Positions 27,901-53,432 of a stretch of 64,000 nt of DNA are shown here, one piece after another (the first letter of the stretch is position 1; each line of letters begins with the position of its first letter). The position numbers and the translations under genes are program-made. The notes beneath the pieces were generated by a model, which was given only the letters and a program-made list of their open reading frames with translations, was not told where the DNA came from and did no database searches. Source of the DNA: Candidatus Aenigmatarchaeota archaeon (lineage in GTDB: Archaea; Aenigmatarchaeota; Aenigmatarchaeia; CG10238-14; SpSt-28). Where the stretch lies: positions 61,926 through 125,925 of the forward strand of contig JAWBAK010000001.1 of the NCBI GenBank assembly GCA_038997165.1. Direction: 5' to 3'.

Positions 27901-30641
27901 CTAATATTACTGATTTAGAGTTTATATTTAATCCAAATATAAGTTATATAGAGCCTGGAAAAATAGTTGAAATAAATGTTAATGTTAGTATTCCATTAGG
28001 ATATCCTGCTGGAACTTATTATGGAATTATAAATGTTAGTAGTGAAATTGGATATAAGGAAATATTGCTTAACATAACTATTTTGAGAGATGGGTTTTGG
28101 ATTATAGATAAGGATTATTGTGAAGCTACGTTTTATCCACCTATTGGAATAGTTTGTGAAATAAATATAGAAAATTTGGGAAATATACCATTAAACTTTA
28201 ATATTACACCAAAAGAAGTAAATTATACCTGGATTAATGTAACTGATTTTACTATTTATCCACAAACAAACTATAGTTTTGAAATTTATTATGATGTTAG
28301 AAATGCTCCATTAGAGTTTATTTATGCTACATATAATATAAGCGCTATAGAAGTGGATGCAATACCTAAGTTTAGATTAATAAACATAAGCTTAAGACCA
28401 TTTATTGGTGCAATAGCAAACCTAACTATTTTTCCAAATATAACTTCGCAATCCTCTAACATAACAATTAATGCTTCTGTATTCGATAGAAGTGGAATTG
28501 GTATGGATTATGTAATTGCAATAATACAAAAACCAGATGGTTTAACAGAGAATATAACATTAACTAAAATCTCGGAAATCAATAGAACTTCTGTTTGGAT
28601 AGGAAATTTTAGTAATACTACACTAAGCGGAAAATATTTTGTAATTTTGGAGATGAAGGATAATGCAAACATAACTACTTATGCCTATGGTAATTTTTCT
28701 GTATATAAAATTCTGTTTCCAAACATATACATTAATAAAGATGAATATGAAAGAGGGGAAAGCATTTCTATATATTTTAATTTAGTTGATTATGCCAATA
28801 TTGGTATTGATAATGCAAGCGTAAGATTAAGAGTATTTAATCCAAGCGGATACAAAATATTCGATGAAATATATGTAACTGAAAATGGGAAAATTCCTAT
28901 AGCAGTTATTAATATACCGACAGATGCAGAATTAGGTAGCTATTCTATTATTGCTAACATAAGCTATTACGACGAAATCAAAGAAGATTTTTCTTATTCG
29001 AGTGATTTAAAAAGTTTCTTAGTTGTTGAAAAACCAAAAATTTCTCTTTTTGCAGATTTAGAAACGAGTGTAGTATGGTATCCAGAAAATGTAATAAAAT
29101 TTGCAATGACTTTCTATGATAATAGAGGAAATCTTTTTGATCCAGATTATGCAGAGCTAAACGTTTTTGATCCCGCAGAAAACTTATATTTTTCAAAAAA
29201 TATAAGCGAATTTAAAAAAGAAAGCTTAGGTTTCTATACTTTAAAGTATGCAATGCATCCCTATACTGCTACAGGTGCATACTTAGCTATTTTGAATTTT
29301 AGTAAAATGAATATTTCTTCAATAAAAACAAAAATGTTTAGGGTAAGTGCTGGTGGACCTTTTGACTTAAAAGTTAATCTTCTAAAAAAAGAGGTAGAAA
29401 GAGGAGATTTGCTACCTTTTGAAATTACAATAATTAACATGGGTGAAGTTAGTATGGATGTTTTTATTGAATATTATGTAAGTGATAAAGATGGTGAAGT
29501 TTATTATTATTCTAGTGAATGGATTTATTCGCCAGCAGCATCAAATAAAACAATTTTAAGAAATGTTTATATATTTTCTAATCAGCCGCTAGGCTTACAT
29601 TATTTAAATGTTATTATGACTTATGATACTATAAAACCTCCACTAAAAGTTAATGAAAGTTTTATTGTAATTGAGAAAATTGAAAAACCTGCACCAATAC
29701 ATAAACCGGTTCAACCAACGATACCAATTGTTGAAATTGCTCCAATAACTCCAAATATAACTAAAAATTATAGTATCGAATTTTTATATATACCTAAAGA
29801 GGTAAGAGTTGCTGCTGGTGAAGAAAAAAGTTTTTTAGTTGTAATAAAAAATGATGGAAATCAACCATTAACTAATGTTGAAGTCAAATTATTAGGAATT
29901 GATACTAGCTGGTATAAAATAAAAAATGAATCATTAAAGTTTTTTGATGTAAATCAGACTATTATTTTTGAAATAATTTTACTAATTCCAAAAAATATAA
30001 AGCAACAAGAAATTAACGTTGTGTTTTATTTTAAATCTTTTGAATTTTTTACATCTAAAGAATTTATATTAAAAATATTTCCATCTTTAGAAGAAATGTT
30101 ACTAGATGAATTAAAAGAATTAAAATCAAAATTAATAGATTTAAAAATTAAAACTTATGAAGCAAAAATACAAAATAAAAATGTTAGTGAAGTAGAAAAA
30201 ATAATAACTAAATGCGAAGAATTAATTAAATTAATAGAAGATTTAATCAAATCTAAAGAATATACAGAAGCTAGTATAAAACTATATGAATTAAGAAGTT
30301 TAATAGATAAAGGTTATTATTTGCTAGAAATTGCTACATTTATAATAAAATTTGAATGGGAAAAATTTTTGTTCATCATTACTTTAATAACTATTATTTC
30401 TGGAATAATCTCAATAATTATACTCTATGTATTAAATACTAGAAAACTACAAAAAATAACTTATAAAGCTGTCGAAAGTACAATTCAAGAACTTAAAAAG
30501 ATAAAATTCGAAAATAAAAAAGAGGAAATAGAAAAAACTAAAAAAATTTTAGATATTCTAGAAAAAGAATATAAAGAAGGAATTATTTCAAAAGAAACTT
30601 ACGAAGAATTAAAAAAGAAATATGAAGAAAAATTGAAATAA
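24915..30641 (+). CDS. 1908-aa surface protein: N-terminal signal/anchor, CARDB-like beta-sandwich repeats, Pro-rich linker, C-terminal TM helix and a cytoplasmic coiled-coil tail ending in a SHOCT-like motif
   Basis: Starts MKKILIIAIFLFFGLLISFFISNF. Many NxS/T sequons. Motifs include VTNLHIGYAYDVNITF and VTNIGNVDAFFSNISI. Linker KPAPIHKPVQPTIPIVEIAPITP (about 29686-29755). TM FIITLITIISGIISIIILYVL (about 30366-30440). The tail ends ...KEYKEGIISKETYEELKKKYEEKLK. ATGA-coupled to the upstream gene. Confidence 0.85.
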   Translation: MKKILIIAIFLFFGLLISFFISNFTGFFVYRYVEDKWWNSSYNFRIKIEIDSSDYVRTNWPIEIFINFTKKLEELNISGNLDLNSLRLVEYDNNGNPIGIIPFQFDIEENFNKSNNAVGELVFILNGTNNAKRKFYLYFDIEENGLKERVEFPTNLSYSIENNLIKINTTGFIFTLANTSNKFGFVNIERKEEFGGLYIFYPSDIPFEYSTTYNQSHQFFYIPYDLEIIEGPIRLGIKVKMVEIDNFGNITGINYTKTYYFYNYAGPGSLEDVAANLVKIKQKFLGNAIRFSNYSFGFEVSNLYGDPQVNIGFDVNLNNPYSYAYAFRGSFSAMIINLNYSNIEFFANSDSESFIGFYFNENEINNAEHIGLAFFGILSTPEEQEYPYKILNGFSNPISINIYSTENREVIFGVHTEFDIYNRGENVKIVAYNISDPYNLVSYVIARIDRGTENENDDIILELFDDGQHNDNLPNDKIFGNNFTILPIDEIGIWKIKIYVFDSNNVLLATNETYFNVTNILRVETNIINKHGDVNRILQALVNVKNFREDENITNAEIKCFDNGIEKEIDVLNFNNGTYLISINSSSNPGYNILNCSASYLNNSGYDFDIYDSTDVITYLSIEAIPNSYFAENITFYSSESFKVIINVTNLHIGYAYDVNITFNTSNSIEVIPEIEYCDNIYIEEYCTKEFIVIIKNATLPNVYNITAIVNWRNHDESYSSNTTNITIEVKSNKILEIYPDEIFSVNPPGKETYLGKIILNSTGNDFVYNISFSSNITDLEFIFNPNISYIEPGKIVEINVNVSIPLGYPAGTYYGIINVSSEIGYKEINLTLKVSGTNATIEIYPNYYFAENITTLTSESFEVIINVTNIGNVDAFFSNISIELPNDNFSSNITFFDCGNLSAKESCIIFVKINIKELTLPNIYEIIYFFNWTDIGLESRSISNKTIVEVKSNKFLEIYPDEFIVSANHNETKNIGKIILNSTGNDFVYNISFSSNITDLEFIFNPNISYIEPGKIVEINVNVSIPLGYPAGTYYGIINVSSEIGYKEILLNITILRDGFWIIDKDYCEATFYPPIGIVCEINIENLGNIPLNFNITPKEVNYTWINVTDFTIYPQTNYSFEIYYDVRNAPLEFIYATYNISAIEVDAIPKFRLINISLRPFIGAIANLTIFPNITSQSSNITINASVFDRSGIGMDYVIAIIQKPDGLTENITLTKISEINRTSVWIGNFSNTTLSGKYFVILEMKDNANITTYAYGNFSVYKILFPNIYINKDEYERGESISIYFNLVDYANIGIDNASVRLRVFNPSGYKIFDEIYVTENGKIPIAVINIPTDAELGSYSIIANISYYDEIKEDFSYSSDLKSFLVVEKPKISLFADLETSVVWYPENVIKFAMTFYDNRGNLFDPDYAELNVFDPAENLYFSKNISEFKKESLGFYTLKYAMHPYTATGAYLAILNFSKMNISSIKTKMFRVSAGGPFDLKVNLLKKEVERGDLLPFEITIINMGEVSMDVFIEYYVSDKDGEVYYYSSEWIYSPAASNKTILRNVYIFSNQPLGLHYLNVIMTYDTIKPPLKVNESFIVIEKIEKPAPIHKPVQPTIPIVEIAPITPNITKNYSIEFLYIPKEVRVAAGEEKSFLVVIKNDGNQPLTNVEVKLLGIDTSWYKIKNESLKFFDVNQTIIFEIILLIPKNIKQQEINVVFYFKSFEFFTSKEFILKIFPSLEEMLLDELKELKSKLIDLKIKTYEAKIQNKNVSEVEKIITKCEELIKLIEDLIKSKEYTEASIKLYELRSLIDKGYYLLEIATFIIKFEWEKFLFIITLITIISGIISIIILYVLNTRKLQKITYKAVESTIQELKKIKFENKKEEIEKTKKILDILEKEYKEGIISKETYEELKKKYEEKLK
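27099..28063 (+). repeat. Internal tandem duplication (period 663 nt) in the 1908-aa gene: a two-domain unit repeated twice, with the second sub-domain nucleotide-identical between copies
   Basis: Block 27180-27395 equals 27843-28058 (216 nt identical, encoding GKIILNSTGNDFVYNISFSSNITDLEFIFNPNISYIEPGKIVEINVNVSIPLGYPAGTYYGIINVSSEIGYK). The 5' part of each unit (KSNK(I/F)LEIYPDE...) is near-identical for ~42 nt and then diverges. Confidence 0.9.
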
Positions 30642-30674: not shown

Positions 30675-31442
30675 ATGGCAGAAATTATAGCCTTTTTATC
30701 TGGAAAAGGTGGTGTTGGTAAGACTACTATTGCAATTAACATAGCAAACGTTTTGTCGACATATTTTAGAAGAAAAGTATTAATTGTCGATACAAATTTT
30801 ACAACCTCTCATTTGGGTTTAAGTTTAGGAATTTTTTATCCAGAAGGAAATTTAAATAAAGTATTAAGAGGAGAAATGAATGTTGAAGATGCTATACATA
30901 ATTATTCTTTAGGTCTTGACTTATTGCCGCTATCTTTATCTATTAGAGATTTAGAAGGGATTGATATATTAAAATTTCCAAGAGTTTTAGAAAGTGTTAA
31001 TTACCGATATGATTATATAATTTTAGATGCAGCTCCAGGACTCGGAAGAGAAGCTATTTTATCTATTAAAAATGCTAATAAAATAGTTTATATTGCTCTG
31101 CCTATAATGCAAAGTGTTGTAGATATAGTTAGAACTCAAGAAGTTGTAAGAGAGTTTGAAAAAAAAGAATTAGGAATTATATTAAACATGGTTAGAAACA
31201 AACCTTATGAAATGAGAGATAACGATATTGAAGGATTAACAAATTTAAAAATAATTGGAAAAATTCCATATGATGAAAGATTTTTAATTTCAAATGCACA
31301 TAAATTGCCCTATACAACCCTTTATCAAAATAACAAAACTTATGAAGAATTTCTAAAGATTTGTAGTATTTTAACAAATCAAAAAATAGAAATTAAAAAA
31401 AGTTTGTTTGGAAGAATATTAGAATTTTTATTTAAAAAATAA
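30675..31442 (+). CDS. MinD/ParA-family (SIMIBI) ATPase, 255 aa
   Basis: Deviant Walker A FLSGKGGVGKTTIAINIA. Blocks VDTNFTTSHLGLSL and IILDAAPG (Walker B-like). Size typical of MinD/ParA/Mrp. Confidence 0.85.
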   Translation: MAEIIAFLSGKGGVGKTTIAINIANVLSTYFRRKVLIVDTNFTTSHLGLSLGIFYPEGNLNKVLRGEMNVEDAIHNYSLGLDLLPLSLSIRDLEGIDILKFPRVLESVNYRYDYIILDAAPGLGREAILSIKNANKIVYIALPIMQSVVDIVRTQEVVREFEKKELGIILNMVRNKPYEMRDNDIEGLTNLKIIGKIPYDERFLISNAHKLPYTTLYQNNKTYEEFLKICSILTNQKIEIKKSLFGRILEFLFKK

Positions 31443-31454
31443 TATATATTAATT

Positions 31455-31682
31455 ATGGTTTACAATATAAGTTTAACATTAATATTAGCTATATTACTAA
31501 TTAGTATCTCTTTTTTATTTTTATTAATATATAAAAAAAGAAAGAAGAGTATAGATGAATTAATACAAGAAATTGAAAATAATCTATTAGATATTAAAAA
31601 AAATCTAGAAAATATTCGTTTAATTTTAAAAAAAGAGCAAAAAGAAATAAAGAGAAAACATGCCAGAAAGAGGAGCATTTGA
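31455..31682 (+). CDS. 75-aa single-TM protein with a basic/coiled-coil tail
   Basis: MVYNISLTLILAILLISISFLFLLIYKKRKK... The hydrophobic N-terminus is followed by KKRKK. It overlaps the next ORF start by 23 nt. Short, so the call is uncertain. Confidence 0.45.
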   Translation: MVYNISLTLILAILLISISFLFLLIYKKRKKSIDELIQEIENNLLDIKKNLENIRLILKKEQKEIKRKHARKRSI

Positions 31683-33561
31683 AGAATTATTAATAGAAGT
31701 TGCTACTAAAATAGCTGAATTAGAAAAAAAAATAAAGAGTGGAAGTTCTGAAGAAATAAAAAGAGTTGAAGAAAATCTTCAAAATCAAATAAATGAGCTA
31801 TCAAAAGTATTAAACGAAATTGCAAACGAAGTTAAGAAAAAAAGAAGAGAAAAAGATCAAACAATAGATTTAATTAGGTCAAATATTGAAGAAAAATTGA
31901 AATTATTCGAGGAAAAACTAAAAAATTTAGAAAGAATTGATTCTATAGAAAGCGAATTAAGAAAATTAAGAGAAGAAAGAGAAAAAAAAGATGATTTTTT
32001 TGGAGATTTGATTAGTGCTTATGAAAAAGAAAAACAATTAAAAATAAGTGATAAAATTGAAGAAATAGATAATAGATTAAAAAATTTAGAAGATGTAATA
32101 AAATTCGTTAAAGATGAAATCCATAAAATTAGAGAATTGGAAGAAATAAAAAAATCTAATTTAGAACATGAAAGAAGAATTTCATATTTAGAAAATTTTC
32201 TTAAACCAGATAAAATTATAAAATTTGAACAAATAGATAACTTTTTCAACAAGGAACTTCCAAAAAGATTAGATAAAGAATTTCAAATAAGAGCTGAAGT
32301 GCTAATAAAAGATATAAAAAATCTAGAAAACGAAATAAATAAATTAAAAAGTTTTTTATTGAGCAAGTCTGGAGAAATTGGATTTCTACTAAAAGAGGTT
32401 AAAAAAATTTCTGATATAGAAAATAAAATAGAAGAAATTTCAAAAAATACTTATAAACTAAATAATATATTAAAAGAATTAGAAAACGTAAATCTTATAA
32501 ATAAAAATGAAGTTGAAATATTAAAATTAAAAATTAATGAAATAGATAAATATGTAAATGAAAATTTAAAAATTTTTGAAAAAATTAAAAATAACATACA
32601 TCTATTTCAAAAGATTTTAGATGAACATGAAGATATAAAGAAAAATATTGAAAAAGTAAATGAAAAAATTATTGAATATGCAAACGAAATAAAAATATTT
32701 GAGGAAAAAATAGAAGAAATTAAAAAAAATCTAAAGAATTTAGTCAGTGAAGATTTATTAAAAGTTGAAATTGAAAAAAATGAAAACAATTTTAATGAAA
32801 TAAATAAAAATTTTGAAAAGCTCAAATTAGATTTAAGTTTGATTAAAAAAGAAATTGATAATTTAAAAACATTTTTTGAAATTAATAAAATACAAAACAT
32901 TGTAAATAATTTTAATGGAATTTTAAGAAATTTATCTTTAATAAATCAAAGAATTGCAAAACTCGAAAATATTATTAATTTAGAAAAAATAGAAGAAAAT
33001 GAAAAAAATTATAAAAAACTAGATAATAGAATTATAAATTGCGAATTAGAAATAGAAAATATTAAAGAAGCTTTTCTAAATATTGAGAAATATTATAAAG
33101 AAAATATATCTTTTTTAGAGAATGTTAATATAAATTTAAATGCTTTGAAAAAAATATTAGCTGAAACAACCGAAAAAATAAGAAACTTTGAAAATTTTGT
33201 AAATACTAATAATCAAAAATCCAACCAAATTTTAAGTGAATCAGTAAAAATTTTAAAGATTATAAAATCTATTGAAAAAGAAATAAATGAAAAATTGTTT
33301 GAAATAACGAGTATAGAAAATAAAATTAAATCGCTTGAAAATTTAAAAAGAGATGTTGAAGAAATGAAAAAAGTTTATAGCAATTTTGATGCCAAAAAAA
33401 TTGAGGAAAAAATATCTAGTATTATCGAAAAAATTAGATATATACAAGAGTTTGATAAAAACGAAATTGAAAGAATAAAATTAGATGTAATAAATTTAGA
33501 AAAAGAAATAAAAGCACTAGAAAAAAAATATTTAGAAATTATTCAATTTCTTAAAGAATGA
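31660..33561 (+). CDS. 633-aa K/E/I/N-rich coiled-coil protein, no nucleotide-binding motifs
   Basis: Continuous heptad-like sequence (ELEKKIKS..., LKNLENEINKLK...). No Walker A/B or SMC signature, no TM. ATGA-coupled to the next gene at 33558. Confidence 0.75.
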   Translation: MPERGAFEELLIEVATKIAELEKKIKSGSSEEIKRVEENLQNQINELSKVLNEIANEVKKKRREKDQTIDLIRSNIEEKLKLFEEKLKNLERIDSIESELRKLREEREKKDDFFGDLISAYEKEKQLKISDKIEEIDNRLKNLEDVIKFVKDEIHKIRELEEIKKSNLEHERRISYLENFLKPDKIIKFEQIDNFFNKELPKRLDKEFQIRAEVLIKDIKNLENEINKLKSFLLSKSGEIGFLLKEVKKISDIENKIEEISKNTYKLNNILKELENVNLINKNEVEILKLKINEIDKYVNENLKIFEKIKNNIHLFQKILDEHEDIKKNIEKVNEKIIEYANEIKIFEEKIEEIKKNLKNLVSEDLLKVEIEKNENNFNEINKNFEKLKLDLSLIKKEIDNLKTFFEINKIQNIVNNFNGILRNLSLINQRIAKLENIINLEKIEENEKNYKKLDNRIINCELEIENIKEAFLNIEKYYKENISFLENVNINLNALKKILAETTEKIRNFENFVNTNNQKSNQILSESVKILKIIKSIEKEINEKLFEITSIENKIKSLENLKRDVEEMKKVYSNFDAKKIEEKISSIIEKIRYIQEFDKNEIERIKLDVINLEKEIKALEKKYLEIIQFLKE

Positions 33562-34214
33562 GTGAAATTCTCGAAATATTGAAAAAGAAAAAAGAATATG
33601 AAAAAATTAGAGAAGAAATTAAGAATGTATCAAACAAATTAAGTCAATTAGAAAATAATTTTATTTATTTAAATAGAGAATTTAATAATCTAAAAGAGGA
33701 ATTTAATAAACTTAAAGAATTAGATCCTATACTTTCAAAATTATTAGAAACTATAAAAAAAATTGAGGAATTTGAAACAAATATAAAAGAAATTAAAGAT
33801 TTAAAAGAGAAATTGAAAATAGATTTAGAGAAAAAAACAAAAAAGAAAATAATTAAACTAATAGAAAAATTAAACTTAAAAGAAAATATTAAAAAAGATA
33901 TAGAAAAAGAAATGAATAAAATTTTAAATGAAAAAATTAATGAAATTGAGAAAAAATATTGGAAGGATTTATCTGAAATAAAGGAATTGAGAAAAAACAT
34001 TGAAAATTTAAAAATTGAAAAGAATAGATTGAATGAAAAAATTTTTGAGTTTGGAAAAATTGAAAATTATTTAAATGAAAAGATTAGAAGAATCGAAAAT
34101 GAAATTGAAAGAATTAAAGGAAAGGTAGAGGAATATGTTAATGAAGTTATAAAAGAAGTAGAGGAATATGTTAATAATTCAATTAAAAAAATTGTTAAGA
34201 ATAGGGGGGTTTAA
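33558..34214 (+). CDS. 218-aa coiled-coil protein
   Basis: K/E/I-rich heptads. Ends ...KNRGV with a G6 tract in the last codons (34204-34209). Confidence 0.7.
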   Translation: MSEILEILKKKKEYEKIREEIKNVSNKLSQLENNFIYLNREFNNLKEEFNKLKELDPILSKLLETIKKIEEFETNIKEIKDLKEKLKIDLEKKTKKKIIKLIEKLNLKENIKKDIEKEMNKILNEKINEIEKKYWKDLSEIKELRKNIENLKIEKNRLNEKIFEFGKIENYLNEKIRRIENEIERIKGKVEEYVNEVIKEVEEYVNNSIKKIVKNRGV

Positions 34215-34340
34215 TATTTTAAAGTTAAAAATATTAATATTAAACTAAGTAATATTACTATGGTACAATTATTTTACTCTTTTTTCATTTTAAAAAACAT
34301 GAAAGAAAATGATACAGCTACTCTCGATGGGAAGGGGGGG
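34204..34340. repeat. Two G homopolymer tracts (G6 at 34204-34209, G7 at 34334-34340) each immediately followed by TAA, flanking a 130-nt AT-rich spacer that holds a 14-codon uORF (34300-34344, MKENDTATLDGKGG)
   Basis: Seen directly: ...aagaataggggggtttaa... and ...gatgggaagggggggtaaaaATG. The G7 sits 5 nt upstream of the ATG at 34346, in Shine-Dalgarno position. G runs of 6 or more are otherwise almost absent from this window. Confidence 0.6.
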
Positions 34341-34345
34341 TAAAA

Positions 34346-34957
34346 ATGAAAGAATTACTAAAATCAAAAGTTTTTTGGTTCATATGGTTAAATTGTGCTT
34401 CAAAAGAGATTAGTTTATTCGAAATTCAAAAAAGATGGAAAATAACCTCTAACTTTTTATATCATAAACATAAAACACTAAAAAAAACCTTTTTGGAATT
34501 AATGTTAGAAGGAAATTATATAGAAAAAATTAATAAAAAAGTTAAGGCAAAATTTGAATGGATAGAAGAGTATATAAAGGAATATTATAAGGGTACAATA
34601 TTAGAAAGGTATAGTAATGTAATATCTAAGTTCTGTATAAAATATAACGAAATTTTCTTTGATTTTAACAATTTAAAAATTCTTTTTAGAGATGAAGAAA
34701 ATTGGAAAATTTTTGGAAATGAAATATTTAGATTTATATTTTTTACTCTTATATATAAAGATATCGAAAGATTTCTAAAGGAGCATAGAGCAGAAAATGT
34801 TAAGATGTTAATTGATATTATTAGTTATATTTCTACTCCATTAAATATTTTGGACTACTCAAAAAGAGTTTCTGAAAAAATTATTGAACACGCCAATATA
34901 ATTTCTACGAAAAAAGATGTTGAAGAATTTTTCAATTTGTTAAATCTGAATAAATAA
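34346..34957 (+). CDS. 203-aa hypothetical cytoplasmic protein, possibly a wHTH-like N-terminus
   Basis: ORF with the G-rich element just upstream. No TM, no obvious catalytic motif. The N-terminal ~60 aa (ISLFEIQKRWKITSNFLYHKHKTLKKTFLELMLEG) is weakly wHTH-like. Confidence 0.6.
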   Translation: MKELLKSKVFWFIWLNCASKEISLFEIQKRWKITSNFLYHKHKTLKKTFLELMLEGNYIEKINKKVKAKFEWIEEYIKEYYKGTILERYSNVISKFCIKYNEIFFDFNNLKILFRDEENWKIFGNEIFRFIFFTLIYKDIERFLKEHRAENVKMLIDIISYISTPLNILDYSKRVSEKIIEHANIISTKKDVEEFFNLLNLNK

Positions 34958-34962
34958 TTATT

Positions 34963-37900
34963 ATGCAAGAAAATAGAGTTGATATTGAAAGTTTAAAAAC
35001 TAAAGTTGATGTACTTACAAAATTAATAACTAGAATAAGGGAAGATATTGAGAAAGATTTTAGCTCTTTAAAAGAAGAAGCAAAAAAAGAGCTAACTTCT
35101 ATGATAGAGAATAAAGTAAAAGAATTTGATAAAGAGTTTGAAGAAGTTATTAAAAAATTTGAAGAAATTTATAAAAGTGATGTAGAAAAATTAAAATCAA
35201 AAATTCAGGATTTAGAAGCATATTCAAAGATATCATTAAATACCAAACTAGACAAAATTGATATAGAAATTAAAAAAGTAGAAGACCTATATAATTCTTT
35301 AGAAAGTGAAATAAAAAAGATAAAAAATTTTATAATTTCTTTAGAAGAGGAAAAAACAAAATTTGAAAATAAATTTAATATTATTAATTCTTTGAAAATT
35401 CAAGTTTCTAGTTTAATAGAAAAGATATCCTCACTAGATAATTTATTATCAAAAATTTCTGTTCTTACTTCTGAAATAAAAACTTTAGAAAGTGAAGTAA
35501 AAATATTGAAAGATTTTCAAAACTTAGAAGTTGCAAAATCTAAAGAAAACATTATTAGAATTCTTAAAGAATTAGAAAAATTTGAAGAATTTATTAGGAA
35601 TTTAAAAAATGAAAATGCGTCTTTAAAACTTTTTGCTGATCAATTAAATAGTATTATTGAAAATAATATTGAAAATTTTGAAAAATATAAAATAGAAATT
35701 AATGAAAAATTTGAAAATATAAAAAACTTTTTTGATTCTCAAATAAAAAGTATAAAAGAAGAAAATTTTTTAACTATAAATAATTTAGTAAAAAAAATCG
35801 AGGAAATCGAAAATAAAATAATAGAATTTGAAAAGGAAAAAACTAATGAAATTAATACAAAAGTAAATGAAGCCTTTGAAAAATTAAATTCAATAAATAA
35901 TTATTTTGAAAATTCAATTAAGGAAATCTATAAAAATATAGATTCTCTTAAAAATGAAGCCCAAAATAAACTAAATGTTTTAGAAAATAAACTAAAAGAA
36001 ATTAATGAAAAATTAGAAGAATTTAAGACAAAAGAAGTTGAAGAAAAAATAAAAACTATTAGAAACGAGTTAGAAGAAGTTAAAATAAATATAGAAAATC
36101 AAAAAAAATTTATAAATGAATTATTAAAAGAAAATTTACAGTTATTCGAAAATAAATTAAAAGAGTTTGAAGAAAAGAAAATAAATGAGAAAATTAACTT
36201 AATAAACATTAGTTTAGAAAATAAAATTAGAAATTTTGAAGAGAAATTACAAAAAATTGATAATAATTTAATACAAATTAAAAGTAATTTAGAAAATAGA
36301 TTGATAGAATTAGAAGAAAAAGAAAAAATCAATAACATAGAAAAAGGAAAAGAAATAAGTAAATTAAAAAAATTAATCGAAAATATTATTTTGAAAATGA
36401 ATAGTTTTGAAGAAGAAACCAAAAATAGTATAAATATATTAAAAAATGAATTAGAAGAAACAAAATTAAAAAATAAAGAAATTAGAGATAATTTTTTACA
36501 AAACGTTGAAAATGTAAATAAAATGTTTAGAAATATTTCTGAAAAGGTAGAAAAAATTCAGAAATTTTTTACTGAATACGATAAAATAATAAAAGATTTT
36601 TATTCGAAAATAGAAATTCTTAATAAAAAAATAGAAGAAAACAAAATTTTTGCTAAAAATATAGAGGAATTTAAAAATGAAATGAATCTTATAAAAGAAA
36701 ATTTATCTAATGTCTATGAAAATTTAAATAATAAATTTTTAGAAGTTGAAAATAAAATAAACGAAAATGAAAATAAACTCAAAACTTTTAATAAAAATAT
36801 TGAAAGAATATGGTTGGAAATTGAAAATATTAAAAAAAATTTAAACAAATTTTCTATTTTTGAAAACGAAATAAAAAGAAAAATTAACGATAATTTACAA
36901 AATATTATTAATCAATTAAAAAATGAAGTAAAAGAACTTGAAGAGAAAAAAACCTTAGAAATTGATGAAAAAATTAAAAGAATTGAAAACAACCTTTCTT
37001 TAATAATTAATAATACGCAAAACATGATTGAAAAACTTAGTGAAACATACGAAAATAAAATAAAAAAATTAGAAGAAAATCTAAAAATAATTGAAATAAA
37101 TATTGAAAATAAACTATCAAATATTAATAATCTTTCTGATAACATAAAGAACGAATTTAATGAAAAGATAAAAAATTTAAAATCTGAATTAGATCTTATT
37201 AATAACGCTATTAATAATATAAAAGCGGAAATTAATAAAACTATCTCTGAAAACTTAAATTTCCTTAGAGAAGAAGTAAATAATAAGCTGAAAGAAGTTG
37301 AAGAAAAAGAAATCATGGAAACTAAAATTAAACTTGAAGAACTCTCTAAACTCTTTTCTTTAACTCAAGAAAATCTTAATAAAACTAAGGAGAATTTAAA
37401 TAATATAAAAAATGAAATTGATCAAAAAATAAATGAGCATTTTGAAAAATTAAATTCAATAAATAATTATTTTGAAAATTCAATTAAGGAAATCTATAAA
37501 AATATAGATTCTCTTAAAAATGAAGCCCAAAATAAACTAAATGTTTTAGAAAATAAACTAAAAGAAATTAATGAAAAATTAGAAGAATTTAAGACAAAAG
37601 AAGTTGAAGAAAAAGTAATTACTATAGAAAATGAAATAAAAAATATTATTAAAAATTTTGAACTTTTAAAAAATATAAGTGATGAAAATACAAAAAAAAT
37701 AGAAGATTTAAAAAATAAATTTGAGGATAATATAAAAAAGGAAGCAAACATGATTAAAAGTGATATAGAAGAGAAAATTAACAAAATATCGAATAATTTA
37801 GAAAAAAAGATAGAAAATATTGAATCTCTTATTTCATTTTTATCCGAAAAAACTAATAATATAGATAACGAACTCAAAACATTTAATAAAAAAGAATTTG

Positions 37901-38100
37901 TAGAAAAATACGAATTAGAAAATCTTAAAAATGAAATAAAAATTATAAAAGAAAAAATTGAAAATCAAGAAAAATTAATTAAGAATTTGGAAGAAAAAAT
38001 TACATTAATAAAAGAGGGACTACCAAAAGAGATAAAGGATATAGAGGATATAATAATTTCTTTTAAAAATCTTGAAAATGAGTTTAGAATTATAGAATAA
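34963..38100 (+). CDS. 1045-aa K/E/N/I-rich coiled-coil protein with an internal nucleotide-identical repeat
   Basis: Heptad periodicity across the whole length. No P-loop, no TM. Repeats at 35875-36048 and 37441-37614. TAA at 38098-38100 directly abuts the stop of the convergent gene. Confidence 0.8.
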   Translation: MQENRVDIESLKTKVDVLTKLITRIREDIEKDFSSLKEEAKKELTSMIENKVKEFDKEFEEVIKKFEEIYKSDVEKLKSKIQDLEAYSKISLNTKLDKIDIEIKKVEDLYNSLESEIKKIKNFIISLEEEKTKFENKFNIINSLKIQVSSLIEKISSLDNLLSKISVLTSEIKTLESEVKILKDFQNLEVAKSKENIIRILKELEKFEEFIRNLKNENASLKLFADQLNSIIENNIENFEKYKIEINEKFENIKNFFDSQIKSIKEENFLTINNLVKKIEEIENKIIEFEKEKTNEINTKVNEAFEKLNSINNYFENSIKEIYKNIDSLKNEAQNKLNVLENKLKEINEKLEEFKTKEVEEKIKTIRNELEEVKINIENQKKFINELLKENLQLFENKLKEFEEKKINEKINLINISLENKIRNFEEKLQKIDNNLIQIKSNLENRLIELEEKEKINNIEKGKEISKLKKLIENIILKMNSFEEETKNSINILKNELEETKLKNKEIRDNFLQNVENVNKMFRNISEKVEKIQKFFTEYDKIIKDFYSKIEILNKKIEENKIFAKNIEEFKNEMNLIKENLSNVYENLNNKFLEVENKINENENKLKTFNKNIERIWLEIENIKKNLNKFSIFENEIKRKINDNLQNIINQLKNEVKELEEKKTLEIDEKIKRIENNLSLIINNTQNMIEKLSETYENKIKKLEENLKIIEINIENKLSNINNLSDNIKNEFNEKIKNLKSELDLINNAINNIKAEINKTISENLNFLREEVNNKLKEVEEKEIMETKIKLEELSKLFSLTQENLNKTKENLNNIKNEIDQKINEHFEKLNSINNYFENSIKEIYKNIDSLKNEAQNKLNVLENKLKEINEKLEEFKTKEVEEKVITIENEIKNIIKNFELLKNISDENTKKIEDLKNKFEDNIKKEANMIKSDIEEKINKISNNLEKKIENIESLISFLSEKTNNIDNELKTFNKKEFVEKYELENLKNEIKIIKEKIENQEKLIKNLEEKITLIKEGLPKEIKDIEDIIISFKNLENEFRIIE
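35875..36048 (+). repeat. Copy 1 of a 174-nt exact repeat inside the 1045-aa gene (partner 37441-37614)
   Basis: Encodes FEKLNSINNYFENSIKEIYKNIDSLKNEAQNKLNVLENKLKEINEKLEEFKTKEVEEK. Nucleotide-identical to the partner, offset 1566 nt. Confidence 0.9.
37441..37614 (+). repeat. Copy 2 of the 174-nt exact repeat inside the 1045-aa gene
   Basis: Identical to 35875-36048. Confidence 0.9.
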
Positions 38101-38484
38101 TTAACCTGGTATAAAATAATATTTCTTTTTACCTTCTCTTACACTTCTTACTTCACCACTTTCTTCCATTTCAACCAAATATTCAGAGCATCTCGTTCTT
38201 GATAAGTTTAATAAATTTGCCAAATCTTGAGCAGTTAGTTTTCCATGTTTTTTTAGTAAAATTTTTATTAGTTCTTTTGTTTTTCTTGTTAAAGGAGTTC
38301 CAACGTCTTCAATTTTCATATTTCTTTTTATTATTGATATTTCTGCTTCTAAGCTCTTTATTTTTTCTTCTAATTCCAAAATTTTGTCATAAACTTTAGT
38401 TAAAAAATTATATAAATTATCAAGTTTCTGATTAATTATTCCAACAATCAATTGATTTTCATCTTTTTTTTGCTTAAAAATCAT
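38101..38484 (-). CDS. 127-aa transcription regulator: N-terminal coiled coil plus C-terminal winged helix-turn-helix (TrmB/MarR/ArsR-like)
   Basis: C-terminus ELIKILLKKHGKLTAQDLANLLNLSRTRCSEYLVEMEESGEVRSVREGKKKYYF has a wHTH pattern (helix, turn, recognition helix, wing). Confidence 0.7.
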   Translation of the reverse strand: MIFKQKKDENQLIVGIINQKLDNLYNFLTKVYDKILELEEKIKSLEAEISIIKRNMKIEDVGTPLTRKTKELIKILLKKHGKLTAQDLANLLNLSRTRCSEYLVEMEESGEVRSVREGKKKYYFIPG

Positions 38485-38501
38485 AAATAAATTATCGAAG
38501 T

Positions 38502-38684
38502 TTATTTTAATTTCTTTAACATTGGTACACCATTTTTTGCCTCTATAACTATATATCCTGGAGGTATTGCTTCTAAAGCATCTATAGGATCTTTACTAAA
38601 ATAAAAAATTAGATTTTTTCCTCTACCTATTTTCATATGTAAATACCAAATTTCCCCTTTTTTGTTTTTATATTTATATGGCAT
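38502..38684 (-). CDS. 60-aa basic hypothetical protein
   Basis: MPYKYKNKKGEIWYLHMKIGRGKNLIFYFSKDPIDALEAIPPGYIVIEAKNGVPMLKKLK. Not low-complexity. Packed tightly between operon neighbours with 3 nt and 17 nt gaps. Confidence 0.5.
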   Translation of the reverse strand: MPYKYKNKKGEIWYLHMKIGRGKNLIFYFSKDPIDALEAIPPGYIVIEAKNGVPMLKKLK

Positions 38685-38686
38685 AA

Positions 38687-40807
38687 TTAGCTAAACTTTC
38701 TTTTTATAAAAGTTTTACCTATAACTTTTTCGTTATTTTTTCTTTTTCTTGAAATGAATATAGATAATGTTATTATAATGATAGATACTAAAATGGATAT
38801 ATAAGTATTGTTATCTAATATTAATACAAATTTTCCTGTTAGATAGTTATTTGATTTTAACTCTTTTTGATTAGTTATATAAAAAACAGGTATATCAAAA
38901 TAAAATTCACTAATATTGTTTTTTAGCTTTAACTTTATAATTTCTGGATTAGATTTTCTAGTAAAATTAAAAAGTTTTATTTTTATAGATTCTCCAACCA
39001 TAATTCTATCGATTTTTATTGTATCTACTTCGCAACCTTCAGAAAATAAATATATGTTTTCTAAATCTTTTTGACCAGAATTTTTTATTTCTATAATTTT
39101 TTCATTTTCAAAATCAGAAAGTTCTATTGATGTATTTAATAAAGTTAATTCTATTTTTGCTTCTGTAACTATATTAATAGCTTCTCTAAAATTTACAAAA
39201 AAATCGCTTTCTGAAAAAAGTAATAAAGTATAGTTTCCTTCGATAGATGGTGAAGATAAAATTAATTCAAATCTACCATTTTGAGTTTGTATAGTATAAA
39301 CTCTTCCATTAAATGAAGCTTTAAAATTTATATCTTGAGGTTTACCTGTGCTATCTATAACTATTCCTCTTAATAGTATTTGCTCGTTTAAATAATATTT
39401 TGGTTTATTAAGTGAATATTGAATTTTTAAGCTTAATTTTTCAAAAATTCCAAAGTAACTTTTATCAAATATTTCAAATTCTATATAATTTGCTATTGTA
39501 TTTTTAGTAAACAATCTAACTTCAAATTTTTTACAAGATTTATCTTTTAAAGAAATTTCTTTACAAAAAATTGGATAAACCATTTCTTCGGAATCAATTT
39601 TTCTTTCATCGTAATATATCCTTGTAATTATTTTTTCAAATTCTAAATCTGTTTCGAAAACAAAAAAATCTAAAATTTTTAAATTTTTTTCGTTAAGAGT
39701 TATAGGATAAAATCTTATTGAGTTATCAAAATATTTTAAATTAACGTTAATCATTCTTATTTCTGCGTTTTTATATTTTATAGTTATATTTCTTTTTCCG
39801 GGTAAAAATAAAAATGTTTGATTTCCAGATAAAGAATATTGAAGATCATCTATTTTTAATGTTATAGTTATTGGATTATTATCATAATCAAAAAAATTAC
39901 AAACTCCAAGCTTTCCTATATTTACTGTTTTTTTAACATCTATCCAATGCATATTATATCTTACTCTAAATTTTATTGTTGAAGCCTCTGCAGGCAAAGT
40001 TATATTAATACATATTCTATTATTACAATCAAAAAAGTTGTTTAACTTAGCATTTTCAACTTCAATACTTATGTTATTTGAACTTAATTTATTTCCCTTA
40101 AATGAAACATCCATAGCAGCAACTACAGAACTTTCTGGATAATAAATTTTATCTTCTAAATCTACATTAGCTTGAAGAGGATTATTAATAACTAAATTTA
40201 AATTCTTAGAAAAAGTTCTAGAAAAATTTCTTAAAAAAATTGAAATCGTTTCTATTTTGTTTATCTCTTTCGATGGAACAAACTTCAAATAATAATAGTA
40301 TCCAATTCTATCCAATTTAAAATTATCTGTAAAAGAGAATTTTATATCAAATTCTGAAGGATCCATAACTCTCGGCTTATTACTCCAACTCTCTTTTAAA
40401 TTAAGAATAAACTTTATTGAAGTCTCTTCGTTTAAATAATTATTTGAAATTTCCAGTATATCAAAATTTAGTACATGCAAGCTTATTCTTATGGTTTTTG
40501 ATATATTAATATTTTGAATTTCATTAAAACAAATAGCTGTTACATTAAAATCTTGAGATAAATAATCTTCATATTTTAATGTTAATTGATTCTTAGGATT
40601 TATAAAAATTCTTTGCAAACCATTATCTATAGATATTACTATTTTATCTAAAATATAATCAGTAGGACAACTAACACTTATGTTAATATTATCACCTAAA
40701 AAAGCATCGGTAGGAAAAAAATCTATGTTTATAGATTCTTGAGAAAAAGTAAGCAATAAAAATAAAATTGAGATTAAAAAACTTTTTGTTATATAAAACT
40801 TAGCCAT
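38687..40807 (-). CDS. 706-aa secreted surface protein with C-terminal TM anchor and K/R tail
   Basis: N-terminal signal MAKFYITKSFLISILFLLLTFSQ. NxS/T-rich beta-sandwich-like body. C-terminus ISILVSIIIITLSIFISRKRKNNEK. The start overlaps the upstream MinD stop by 19 nt. Confidence 0.8.
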   Translation of the reverse strand: MAKFYITKSFLISILFLLLTFSQESINIDFFPTDAFLGDNINISVSCPTDYILDKIVISIDNGLQRIFINPKNQLTLKYEDYLSQDFNVTAICFNEIQNINISKTIRISLHVLNFDILEISNNYLNEETSIKFILNLKESWSNKPRVMDPSEFDIKFSFTDNFKLDRIGYYYYLKFVPSKEINKIETISIFLRNFSRTFSKNLNLVINNPLQANVDLEDKIYYPESSVVAAMDVSFKGNKLSSNNISIEVENAKLNNFFDCNNRICINITLPAEASTIKFRVRYNMHWIDVKKTVNIGKLGVCNFFDYDNNPITITLKIDDLQYSLSGNQTFLFLPGKRNITIKYKNAEIRMINVNLKYFDNSIRFYPITLNEKNLKILDFFVFETDLEFEKIITRIYYDERKIDSEEMVYPIFCKEISLKDKSCKKFEVRLFTKNTIANYIEFEIFDKSYFGIFEKLSLKIQYSLNKPKYYLNEQILLRGIVIDSTGKPQDINFKASFNGRVYTIQTQNGRFELILSSPSIEGNYTLLLFSESDFFVNFREAINIVTEAKIELTLLNTSIELSDFENEKIIEIKNSGQKDLENIYLFSEGCEVDTIKIDRIMVGESIKIKLFNFTRKSNPEIIKLKLKNNISEFYFDIPVFYITNQKELKSNNYLTGKFVLILDNNTYISILVSIIIITLSIFISRKRKNNEKVIGKTFIKRKFS

Positions 40808-41514
40808 TTTTTTAGAAATAAGAAGCTTGGTTTTTTATAAGGAATACCTAAAAAATTGCTAGCAAAACTTTTAATTTCTATTGTAAATGAAGAATAAGGA
40901 TTATAAAACACATAGGGTATTCCTTTGTTTAAACTCTCCTTTATTTTTGTATCTTCTGGTAAAACAGCTAAAATAGGTATTCCTGAAATATCAAAAATTT
41001 CGTTTGGACTAATTGATTTTTTTGTATATCTATTAACTATTATTCCAGTAATTTTTATATTTTCCTTTTCAAACTCTTTTATTATTCTCATTAAGGCATA
41101 TATCGAAGTTGTTTCTGGTAAAGTTAGTAAAAATATTTCGTCACATATTTTCGCTATTTCCAAATTTTTTTCAGATATTCCTGGTTCTGTATCTATAACT
41201 AAAAAATCAAAACTCCCTTCTAAATCATTTAATATGTTTATGTTCTTATAGTTTAGATTAGAATCTCCGGTTGGTAAAACTCTTAACCCAAAAGGGGTTA
41301 AATATATTGCATTATTTATCGGTATTTCAAAATTTAAAGCTCGCGAAAGATTTAAATTATAGTTTATTAGACCTAAGGAAATAGATAAAGAATTGTTAAG
41401 ATCTGTATCTATTAATAATGGATTTTTTTCAAAACATAATAAAGAGCTTGCAAAATTTATTGCAAATGTTGTTTTTCCTACACCACCCTTAGCTGAAAAA
41501 ATCCCTATTTTCAT
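40789..41514 (-). CDS. MinD/ParA-family ATPase paralog, 241 aa
   Basis: MKIGIFSAKGGVGKTTFAINFASSL (deviant Walker A). LIDTDLNNSLSISLGL. LVIDTEPGIS (Walker B-like). Confidence 0.8.
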   Translation of the reverse strand: MKIGIFSAKGGVGKTTFAINFASSLLCFEKNPLLIDTDLNNSLSISLGLINYNLNLSRALNFEIPINNAIYLTPFGLRVLPTGDSNLNYKNINILNDLEGSFDFLVIDTEPGISEKNLEIAKICDEIFLLTLPETTSIYALMRIIKEFEKENIKITGIIVNRYTKKSISPNEIFDISGIPILAVLPEDTKIKESLNKGIPYVFYNPYSSFTIEIKSFASNFLGIPYKKPSFLFLKKWLSFI

Positions 41515-41543: not shown

Positions 41544-42461
41544 TTATACTGAAGCCACTATGAAGAGCTTTCCGCTTACTGTGCCCATTGGAACTCCATA
41601 TGGAATTCTTACTTGAACTCTAAAATTCACAAACTCTGCTGGATTTAACTGAGTTGATCTTAAATAATTTGTTGGAAGATTTACTTTATCAGTAATATTA
41701 TAATCCCAATATCCAAAATATGCTTCTGTTCCATCGGAATTTATGACAAAATATCCTTCTAACATATTATTATTTCCTATTGTATGAGCTACATAACCAT
41801 ATTCGTTAACTGCTGTTAAAGATTTTTCGTCATATTGGCTTGCGTCAGAAAAGCTTAAAATACCTGAAGAAGTTGCTGTTTTTGGAGATTTGGCAAATCT
41901 TACTTTAACATCTGATGTATTGAATTTTTTATTACTATCAGAAATTGCTAGAATAAACCAATCCTCTCCTTCATTTGTCACAACTTTTGCTGTTCTAAAT
42001 AAGAAAAGTTTACATTTTGTGGAATCAAAATTATCGTTATTCATACATTCTGCTGGAAATGTCATGTATTTTGGTGGGTTATCTATTGAGAATAATCTCT
42101 GAGCTACATATTTAATATTTGATGATTCATCCTCTACCAAAACGAATTCTCCGCTTTTATGTAAGTTTGGATTGTTACTTCCCCATGGGTTTTGTGATGG
42201 CAACTCAACACTGATTTTTATGTTACTTATTGGTACGCTACCTAAGTTATAAATTGTTATGTAAGCAGAATTTGGATTTGCTATATCTCCTGGCATACCC
42301 GAGAAACTTATTGCATCTGGAGTTACATCTATTATTACGGCTTGCTGTACTGTAACATCTACAATTACCTCGCTAGGATAGTCTTCAGAAAAAGAAACAT
42401 AAAAACCTATTACTATAAAAGCTACTAGTATTGCTAGTATTACATTGCTTTTTTCTTTCAT
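41544..42461 (-). CDS. 305-aa secreted/anchored protein, less Asn-biased than its neighbours
   Basis: N-terminal hydrophobic anchor MKEKSNVILAILVAFIVIGFYV. Contains NLGSVPISNI (CARDB-like). First gene of the minus-strand operon. Confidence 0.7.
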   Translation of the reverse strand: MKEKSNVILAILVAFIVIGFYVSFSEDYPSEVIVDVTVQQAVIIDVTPDAISFSGMPGDIANPNSAYITIYNLGSVPISNIKISVELPSQNPWGSNNPNLHKSGEFVLVEDESSNIKYVAQRLFSIDNPPKYMTFPAECMNNDNFDSTKCKLFLFRTAKVVTNEGEDWFILAISDSNKKFNTSDVKVRFAKSPKTATSSGILSFSDASQYDEKSLTAVNEYGYVAHTIGNNNMLEGYFVINSDGTEAYFGYWDYNITDKVNLPTNYLRSTQLNPAEFVNFRVQVRIPYGVPMGTVSGKLFIVASV

Positions 42462-53429: not shown

Positions 53430-53432
53430 GTT

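Follow-up and report, generated by a model that had tools for sequence, protein, structure and literature searches.

MinD-like ATPases at archaeal surface and pilus loci are already known from comparative genomics: FleN/MinD ATPases of arCOG00589 recur in the clade-1 pilus loci of archaea (Makarova et al. 2016; PMC4858521), the complex members of which combine two TadC genes, large adhesins, S-layer-like proteins and membrane proteins with the arCOG00589 ATPase, and a preprint assigns a "system 1" that has two platform genes to methanogens and DPANN archaea (10.64898/2026.04.22.720090). ATPases of arCOG00589 are also often encoded beside unrelated intracellular or membrane proteins (PMC4858521). 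The Haloferax proteins MinD4 and MinD2 place surface machinery (the archaellum and chemosensory arrays), not the division ring (10.1101/2020.04.03.021790; PMC11588486). Here we describe a locus of a Candidatus Aenigmatarchaeota archaeon that encodes two archaeal MinD-type ATPases, MinD-A and MinD-B; the stretch analyzed, called the window below, comprises 64,000 nucleotides (nt) of the assembly GCA_038997165.1 (contig JAWBAK010000001.1, positions 61,926 to 125,925 of the forward strand), and all coordinates are positions within it. The evidence leans, if narrowly, toward a reading in which both ATPases belong to one conserved DPANN surface-gene supercluster and organize or license envelope complexes, with MinD-A being slow and long-lived.

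To our knowledge, archaeal MinDs do not position the division ring, and only for Haloferax MinD4 and MinD2 have cargos been described; nor do we know of an archaeal counterpart of MinE or ParB as a partner protein. In the MinD–MinJ–DivIVA system of Bacillus subtilis and the PomXYZ system of Myxococcus, the ATPase is held by a membrane adaptor and/or a coiled-coil scaffold and does not oscillate. Recruitment of MinD by MinJ is mentioned in PMC13246001, where the D40A variant of B. subtilis MinD is described as having negligible ATPase activity, ~10-fold tighter membrane binding and confined static clusters.

Family assignment of the two ATPases

The window is very AT-rich (G+C 17–30%), and in its six-frame translation the pattern KGGxGK[ST] occurs at two sites only, those of MinD-A and MinD-B; across 200 shuffles of the window it was seen 0 times. 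The original prediction of two MinD/ParA-sized open reading frames (ORFs) with KGGVGKTT agrees exactly with the gene coordinates, and the products have 255 and 241 amino acids (aa), respectively. Both proteins match the Pfam models CbiA, ParA and AAA_31 (E 1e-13 to 1e-18), and the top NCBIfam model for both is TIGR01969 (minD_arch), with 151.8 bits (1.8e-44) for MinD-A and 132.4 bits (1.5e-38) for MinD-B. The bacterial MinD model TIGR01968 gives ~79 bits for both (cutoff 212.9), the ParA_partition model 45–53 bits (cutoff 180), the CpaE homologue model 31–35 bits, and the BcsQ model TIGR03371 32 bits for MinD-A and 63.5 bits for MinD-B; against MrpORP, of the Mrp/NBP35 Fe–S carriers, both score 50–54 bits, under the cutoff of 450.

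The nearest solved structures by sequence are, for both ATPases, the archaeal MinDs 1hyq, 1g3q and 1ion (2.4e-26 for MinD-B against 1ion, the fold of MinD-B being assessed from sequence alone), and the structures of FleN/FlhG score well below MinD. An AlphaFold2 (AF2) model of MinD-A, with a predicted local distance difference test score (pLDDT) of 89.9, has its best folds in 1ion and 1g3q (template modeling score 0.86) and 1hyq (0.81); below the archaeal MinDs follow bacterial MinD and then Soj, FleN, McdA and FlhG. The Walker A motif begins at about residue 9–10 in both ATPases, without an N-terminal extension, so that the receiver-like domain of TadZ and the activator helix of FlhG are both absent. 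Domain library scans of the neighbor proteins found no MinC or MinE domain, which separates the locus from a Min system, and no ParB domain, the models scanned including none for SegB-like proteins; no flagellar or archaellum genes were found by domain scans of the window. No intergenic or centromere-like repeat arrays occur in 30–46 kb, where all repeats lie inside AT-rich coiled-coil genes. MinD-A and MinD-B are archaeal-MinD-like and not ParA, TadZ or FlhG; with MinD-like scores, no ParB and repeats only inside coiled-coil genes, the assignment to a chromosome-partitioning ParA clade that had been named as the counter-case to the original prediction does not apply.

With only 31% identity, MinD-A and MinD-B are ancient paralogues of different clades, not the result of a recent duplication. 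The number of homologues at E <= 1e-10 is 536 for MinD-A, many of them from Aenigmatarchaeota and named "cell division ATPase MinD", and 27 for MinD-B, whose identity to its homologues falls sharply from 58% to 35%, delimiting a narrow clade. A rough neighbor-joining tree places the two in separate clades, both with the archaeal MinD structures relative to CpaE-labelled sequences (bootstraps: 37/50 for the MinD-A core, 43/50 for the MinD-B core, and 31/50 for the wider MinD-A clade, termed DxN after its switch-I motif). The duplication in this genome that had been supposed at the outset is not supported by this identity, by the separate clades or by the switch-I motifs, which are DxN in one protein and DxD in the other.

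Switch I and the C-terminal tails

The switch-I sequence of MinD-A is VDTNFTTSHL, at a site where archaeal and bacterial MinDs have VDxDxxxxNL: the catalytic Asp of the DxD motif (D40 of MinD, D44 of Soj) is missing from MinD-A, and present in MinD-B as IDTDLN. In HMMER alignments with 1hyq, 1g3q, 4v03 and 4v02, N41 of MinD-A falls on D40 of Aquifex MinD (4v03) and on A40 of 4v02, the trapped-dimer structure in which this residue is replaced by Ala (D40A); the same position is mutated in Helicobacter pylori Soj D41A (8jml) and in McdA D38A (6nop). Asn occupies it in 120/120 listed MinD-A homologues, and D39, N41, T43 and H46 are invariant in an alignment of 17 MinD-A sequences of 38–81% identity. 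A cluster-representative search for the MinD-A clade, covering 1.84 billion proteins, returned Asn in 119 of the ~130 parsable sequences from the best 150 representatives, down to ~30% identity; named members of this DxN clade come from the Aenigmatarchaeota and Nanopusillaceae. DxD is kept in MinD-B and in 21/23 of its parsed homologues. By analogy with the engineered Asp variants, we infer that ATPases of the DxN clade are slow, or depend on a partner, and are suited to staying stably bound to the membrane, and, since MinD-A lacks the switch-I Asp needed for hydrolysis, it is probably a fixed membrane scaffold and not a moving one.

MinD-A ends in KKSLFGRILEFLFKK, with the C-terminal amphipathic helix SLFGRILEFLFKK, and the C-terminal tail of MinD-B reads YKKPSFLFLKKWLSFI; with examples from relatives such as ...PPKLMKLRRLFGG and ...FFERIKRIFKK, the extreme C-termini are basic, amphipathic and conserved in kind across both MinD clades. 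The last 11 residues of MinD-A have a helical hydrophobic moment (muH) of 0.69, the maximum of the protein, and the tail of MinD-B combines a muH of 0.44 with a high hydrophobicity (H 0.52). In the AF2 model of MinD-A, residues 244–253 form a separate helix beyond a low-confidence linker. An amphipathic C-terminal helix had been proposed as a check on the two proteins, and both have an amphipathic tail by conservation and hydrophobic moment, the model of MinD-A adding the separate terminal helix; the tails look like MinD-type membrane-targeting sequences, through which both proteins would bind the membrane.

The surface-gene supercluster in the window and in relatives

The spacing of genes fits two long convergent strings (overlaps of 4–23 nt, gaps of 2–33 nt) abutting at 38100/38101 (table 1). 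Around MinD-A, the reported arrangement of a 1908-aa protein before it and a 75-aa single-transmembrane (TM) protein with three coiled-coil proteins after it stands, except that a 203-aa protein without a coiled coil intervenes; MinD-B was correctly placed on the opposite strand between a 305-aa secreted protein (upstream) and a 706-aa surface protein (downstream), and its operon, as a correction to that description, continues with genes for a protein of 60 aa and a winged-helix protein of 127 aa.

Much of this order is found again in related contigs of Aenigmatarchaeota and other DPANN archaea, for which, as for homologues, we use labels (L-numbers and P0129). The MinD-A block, consisting of a giant protein, a coiled-coil/SHOCT-like protein, a surface protein of ~1700–1900 aa, MinD, a ~70-aa TM protein with a basic end and coiled-coil proteins, is kept in L016 (MinD identity 85%), L001–L003 (81%), L007 (60%), L008 (55%) and L009/L010 (53%). 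The MinD-B block, in which the 305-aa protein, MinD-B and an overlapping surface protein of ~700 aa follow one another, is kept in L004–L006 (75%) and L014/L015 (58%); the 60-aa protein and the winged helix-turn-helix (wHTH) protein follow it only in L004–L006, the downstream genes of L014 being different. A scan of the genome collection found two close relatives only, L016 and L017.

Further contigs hold other combinations of the same genes. L011/L012 encode a single MinD near homologues of g60, g172, g290, g305 and g1908, which in the window are split between both operons, and L013 and L099 each hold one co-directional cluster with a g706-like gene, a second MinD, g689-, g207-, g408- and g60-like genes, followed by the MinD nearest to MinD-A; where the second MinD stands within the cluster differs between the two contigs. 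In L098, a MinD is found together with a giant gene like g7588 and with genes like g60 and g408. L100 encodes a DxN MinD and a DxD MinD (1047..1820 and 4514..5269). Ahead of the former lie genes for a coiled-coil protein and for a TM protein of 59 aa whose end is basic, and the latter has a tail, YKPPFFAPIRRLFNWI, resembling that of MinD-B; since the pair is found in so distant a contig, the DxN/DxD pairing may predate the lineage of the window. Two MinDs are present on three of the contigs L011/L012, L013, L098, L099 and L100, and the DxN-type MinDs in L011–L013 and L098–L100 sit among homologues of the accessory genes. As a control, none of the g60, g408 and g689 modules was found in 80 unrelated MinD/ParA loci, taken from a metagenome scan with the MinD-A clade alignment on the basis of a generic Walker A pattern and mostly unrelated (<= 35% identity).

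The conservation of the neighborhood, another check suggested with the original prediction, therefore holds in that the link to surface genes persists to ~40% MinD identity. The proposal of two separate surface assemblies is not supported: because L011/L012 mix homologues of both operons around one MinD, and L013 and L099 hold both MinDs in a single co-directional cluster, one conserved surface-gene supercluster, often with two MinDs, probably fits the gene orders better than two independent assemblies.

Table 1. Genes of the surface-gene supercluster and its border in the window
Feature	Positions	Strand	Description
g7588	917..23683	+	Giant surface protein, 7588 aa in the window ORF; Ig-like repeats; first gene of the MinD-A string
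g410	23686..24918	+	Cytoplasmic coiled-coil protein with SHOCT-like motifs; periodicity z = 9.0
g1908	24915..30641	+	Large surface protein; N-terminal signal/TM; TM at aa 1819-1837; ~70-aa cytoplasmic tail
MinD-A	30675..31442	+	255 aa; archaeal-MinD-like ATPase of the DxN clade; SGKGGVGKTT; signature Lys K11
g75	31455..31682	+	Small bitopic protein; TM at aa 7-25; short cytoplasmic helix; basic C-terminus KRKHARKRSI
g633	31660..33561	+	Coiled coil; periodicity z = 13.9; N-terminal ~270 aa conserved, rod variable
g218	33558..34214	+	Coiled coil; periodicity z = 9.5; weak crescentin-rod-type matches
g203	34346..34957	+	Conserved cytoplasmic protein between second and third coiled-coil genes; 73% identical in L001
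g1045	34963..38100	+	Long coiled coil; periodicity z = 21.3; 912-aa homologue in L001
g127	38101..38484	-	Coiled coil and winged helix (TrmB/HTH_24-like); last gene of the MinD-B operon
g60	38502..38684	-	Conserved 60-aa five-stranded beta protein; travels with DxN-type MinDs
g706	38687..40807	-	Secreted surface protein with a C-terminal anchor; cytoplasmic tail short and basic, GKTFIKRKFS
MinD-B	40789..41514	-	241 aa; divergent archaeal-MinD-like ATPase; SAKGGVGKTT; switch I DTD
g305	41544..42461	-	Secreted; N-terminal TM/signal; first gene of the MinD-B operon
g290, g172, g222 and g408	42521..45738	+ (g408: -)	Small secreted or membrane-anchored proteins of the conserved supercluster
g2542, g173, g689 and g207	45801..56624	+	Further surface genes; homologues between two MinDs in other lineages
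g2542	45801..53429	+	2542-aa secreted protein
g689	53954..56023	+
Lhr-type helicase	56646..59315	+	DEAD, Helicase_C, WH_Lhr, DEAD_assoc; directly after the surface cluster; appears unrelated

The MinD-A string begins with surface proteins of unusual size. g7588 matches Big_7, Big_1, DUF11, MG2 and DUF87/HerA; at its end, a weak TM segment is followed by a ~330-aa cytoplasmic FtsK/HerA-type P-loop domain (region 22400..23683) with a Walker A motif AAGGTGSGKT (22742–22765) and a Walker B-like LLLIYDEIH, and this domain matches DUF87/HerA (1.8e-9) and CedB and, within the last 427 aa of the protein, CedD (1.8e-11), HerA and TraD, all below the cutoffs. The C-terminal ~1000–1180 aa are 82% identical in L001 and 63% in L009, where the gene order is kept; the fusion of a giant adhesin to an FtsK/HerA-type ATPase is unusual. 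Homologues of g1908 adjoin MinD in L001, L007, L008, L009 and L012 at 34–67% identity; the domain matches of g1908 are sub-threshold, with 30.2 bits to NPCBM_assoc over the whole protein, no single stretch passing, and 24.8 bits to MG2 (cutoff 32.8). The motif GxISxExYxxLKxxY closes the cytoplasmic tail of g1908 (~30372..30641) and of all its homologues, and g410, whose homologues hold the matching position in L001 and L009, has three motifs resembling it and matches Pfam SHOCT at E = 1.9e-4 (21.5 bits, under the cutoff of 27). A SHOCT domain proper in the tail of g1908 was rejected at E = 0.02–0.04, leaving the term SHOCT-like motif, and a DUF2341 (PilY-like) domain in its N-terminus, suggested by WWNSSYxFRIKIEI, was rejected as it has no Pfam match at E <= 1.

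Following MinD-A, g75 starts 12 nt past its end and overlaps g633. ORFs of the g75 type, of 68–89 aa, follow MinD in L001, L007, L008 and L010 with the conserved end KKHxRKR (tails ...KKHARKRSV, ...KKHGKRRRTR and ...KKHGRKR), homology by BLAST being confined to the L001 group and L009/L010 and the proteins of L007 and L008 being matched by position and design; the 59-aa TM protein of L100 that overlaps the MinD start resembles g75. Partner proteins of ParA/MinD typically act through short basic peptides (reviewed in PMC11407121), and g75 may serve MinD-A as a membrane tether or partner. Of the coiled-coil proteins, assigned by a 3.5-residue hydrophobic periodicity (z = 9–21 for g633, g218 and g1045, with Pro and Gly each <1.5%), g633 has an N-terminal region 40–77% identical in L001, L003, L007, L008 and L010 and weak matches to SMC/Rad50 coiled coils, nothing stronger, and the position of g218 is taken in L001 and L008 by coiled-coil genes of 306 and 380 aa. 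For g203, neither heptad periodicity nor a family match in library scans was found. The lengths of the coiled-coil genes vary among relatives (633 vs 720/773/826, 218 vs 288/306/380, and 1045 vs 912 aa), and g1045 contains a 300-nt internal direct duplication, D1 (35812–36111 and 37378–37677, 84% identical). The coiled-coil region 32000..38000 has a G+C content of 17–20%, against 25–30% elsewhere in the window, and strong positive GC and AT skews, reflecting Lys/Glu/Asn/Ile-rich coding. The stops of the convergent g1045 and g127 meet without any spacer; an intrinsic-terminator-like hairpin was not found in 30–46 kb, the scan for bacterial promoters and terminators being uninformative for an AT-rich archaeon.

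The MinD-B operon is opened by g305, which has no family match in library scans and whose homologues are found close to the one MinD of L011/L012 and, in L004 and L014, upstream of the orthologues of MinD-B. The start of g706 overlaps the end of MinD-B by 19 nt, and an overlap of this kind, between MinD and a gene for a large surface protein, is kept in L004 (by 19 nt), in L014 (by 10 nt) and, by 4 nt, on the contig of P0129, where the MinD is 31% identical and the surface protein, of 835 aa, has a faint CarboxypepD_reg match; the basic tail of g706 is conserved as GKTF[IL]KRKF. A model of g60 shows five beta strands (pLDDT 93.1) and found no match among solved structures. The g60 homologues in L012 and L013 bear extra C-terminal segments of the type FGIFGIFGKK, and a homologue search with g60 gave 5 close matches only, the word index limiting short queries; we regard g60 as a candidate MinD partner. 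The product of g127 matches Pfam TrmB (6e-7) and HTH_24 (1.8e-6), is 86% identical in L001 and is probably a regulator; small wHTH genes are also present in the L012, L013 and L100 clusters.

Beyond this operon, homologues of g290 and g172 adjoin MinD in L011/L012, and those of g408 are found in L004 (co-directional with two T2SSF genes), L013, L098 and L099. Segments of g2542, which has beta-propeller/PQQ/FG-GAP repeats at aa 1680–2040, and g689 are homologous to genes between both MinDs in L013 and L099; homologues of g689 and g207 occur in L004, L013, L099 and L100. Genes of a pilus type join the cluster in two relatives: in L008, MinD-A and the coiled-coil genes are followed on their own strand, with overlapping ends, by genes for a CBS protein, T2SSE and two T2SSF, and in L004, which is the nearest relative from NCBI, the homologue of g408 comes after two T2SSF genes. 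The analogy to FlhG and TadZ drawn in the original prediction can thus be kept in part, as far as the pilus ATPase and/or platform genes in these clusters go, and not for the proteins themselves, which are without the defining features of TadZ/CpaE and FlhG.

Proposed function and comparison with known systems

Among the products of the supercluster are surface proteins of giant and medium size, small secreted proteins rich in beta structure, a winged-helix regulator and the 60-aa beta protein; in some relatives, an ATPase of the type IV pilus type and two platform genes are added. We propose that each ATPase would bind ATP, dimerize via its signature lysine and, through the amphipathic tail at its C-terminus, attach to the membrane on the inner side, where it would organize or license the cytoplasmic side of the envelope complexes encoded alongside. 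Because Asn replaces the catalytic switch-I Asp, MinD-A is predicted to hydrolyze ATP very slowly and so to persist on the membrane as a dimer or cluster without oscillating; g75 with its basic tail, the coiled-coil proteins and the tails that the giant surface proteins have in the cytoplasm would be its likely partners. In MinD-B the catalytic Asp is retained, and the short basic cytoplasmic tail of g706 would be a plausible contact. A more specific and speculative version, to which we give rather little weight, is a DPANN-specific static scaffold of the hydrolysis-impaired DxN MinD with g60, the basic-tail TM protein and the coiled coils, clustering giant adhesins (one with an FtsK/HerA-type ATPase) and pilus-type machinery at a defined, possibly host-contact, site, to which the DxD-type MinD-B would add a dynamic or licensing step.

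Several points weigh against the organizing role proposed here. Its support comes from sequence comparisons and structure models, and synteny shows linkage and not function. Both ATPases lie under the curated TIGR01969 cutoff of 201.75 bits, the neighbor-joining tree is rough (the DxN clade being recovered in 31/50 bootstraps) and the SHOCT-like motifs of g1908 and g410 are sub-threshold. T2SSE and T2SSF are absent from the window by tblastn, and the window has no convincing class III pilin, the sole candidate, g305, fitting a relaxed pattern; the pilus link accordingly comes from the two relatives. As to this candidate, g305 was rejected as a class III pilin, since it fits the relaxed pattern only and its homologues have ordinary Sec signals. 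Furthermore, the natural residue of MinD-A is Asn and not Ala, and with Thr43 and His46 invariant, residual or partner-assisted hydrolysis is possible: the Asn or His46 might still support the reaction, or a partner might supply the group missing from the active site.

The same gene orders bear on an alternative in which MinD-A and MinD-B are general-purpose archaeal MinD paralogues with cell-wide roles in shape or membrane organization, like Haloferax MinD2 and MinD4, so that gene position would be uninformative on cargo. Databases name the MinD-A clade "cell division ATPase MinD", the L013 and L099 clusters border ribosomal and translation genes, and archaea often have several MinD paralogues encoded away from cargo (Makarova 2016, PMC4858521; Nussbaum 2020, 10.1101/2020.04.03.021790); however, homologues of g60, g408, g689, g706, g1908, g305, g290 and g172 stay near MinDs sharing only 40–47% identity, and the start/stop overlaps of MinD-B/g706 and g75/g633 point to co-translation, which leaves such cell-wide roles a minority view. 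Slightly less probable again is that MinD-B, and possibly MinD-A, serves as a BcsQ- or Get3-like factor for insertion, export or placement of the adjacent anchored surface protein, and not in spatial patterning. This would suit the 63.5 bits of MinD-B to BcsQ and its 46 bits to ArsA_ATPase, the overlap of MinD-B with the gene of a C-terminally anchored protein in every lineage seen, and the many cluster genes for tail-anchored-like surface proteins. The archaeal MinD model nevertheless scores about twice as high (132 bits), the nearest solved structures are MinDs, the ArsA match is confined to the P-loop region, and the surface proteins bear N-terminal Sec-type signals and so are not classic tail-anchored clients.

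Membership of both ATPases in the ParA/MinD superfamily, the wHTH gene g127 at the end of the MinD-B operon and the recurrence of small wHTH genes in related clusters could also be taken to mean that they are ParA-type DNA partition ATPases of a chromosome or an integrated element, with the winged-helix proteins as centromere-binding adaptors. We consider this very improbable, as the 45–53 bits to the partition model compare with 132–152 for archaeal MinD, the neighbor proteins have no ParB domain, the 30–46 kb region no intergenic repeat arrays, the C-terminus is an amphipathic membrane-type tail and not a DNA-binding surface, and the cluster is chromosomal in relatives.

Under the reading as organizers of envelope complexes, the locus brings together, in a small and conserved group of genes, candidate partners and cargos of two MinD clades from tiny, mostly host-dependent archaea. 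The natural loss of the catalytic Asp across a large clade makes a direct testable prediction and suggests a MinD that works without oscillating, as a stable switch or scaffold. Should the cluster indeed organize the giant surface proteins thought to mediate DPANN host attachment, it would offer a handle on how contact sites are built. In the literature searched, there was no account of a natural Asp-to-Asn clade, of the DxN/DxD pairing or of the partner gene set, and as far as these searches showed, the natural Asp-to-Asn change across a DPANN-wide clade, the DxN+DxD pairing and the conserved set of candidate partners are apparently new; the association of MinD-like ATPases with surface and pilus loci as such is not, on account of Makarova et al. 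(2016) and the 2026 preprint. A paper on Thermococcales Ig modules and a preprint on the Dip system, considered as further comparators, are both unrelated to the locus.

The engineered hydrolysis-deficient proteins MinD D40A, Soj D41A and McdA D38A lack the same aspartate as the MinD-A clade and give locked ATP dimers, tight matrix binding and static clusters; MinD-A differs from them by its natural Asn in place of Ala. Haloferax volcanii MinD4 and MinD2 are, like the window proteins, of the archaeal MinD clade, although their genes are not embedded in cargo operons, and MinD4 has a long C-terminal extension and oscillates, whereas the ATPases of the window are minimal (241–255 aa) DPANN proteins, MinD-A with DxN. 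Bacterial TadZ/CpaE and FlhG/FleN are likewise MinD-like ATPases of related fold dedicated to a pilus or flagellum, FlhG also having an amphipathic C-terminal helix, whereas the receiver-like domain of TadZ and the activator helix by which FlhG binds FliM/FliY are missing from the window ATPases. With MinD–MinJ–DivIVA and PomXYZ the likeness is one of gene-set design only, in that small TM and coiled-coil proteins directly follow MinD-A; g75, g633, g218 and g1045 have no sequence relationship to MinJ, DivIVA, PomX or PomY in library scans. Closest are the arCOG00589 pilus loci (clade 1/"system 1", Epd-like), which, compared by description, share a small MinD-like ATPase among adhesin- or S-layer-like secreted proteins, and to which the relatives L008 and L004 add the likeness of two TadC-like platform genes and L008 also that of a secretion ATPase. 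The window differs from these loci in being without a pilus ATPase, a platform gene or a clear class III pilin, and in having two divergent MinDs, the Asn of MinD-A, the set of TM and coiled-coil proteins and the 60-aa beta protein.

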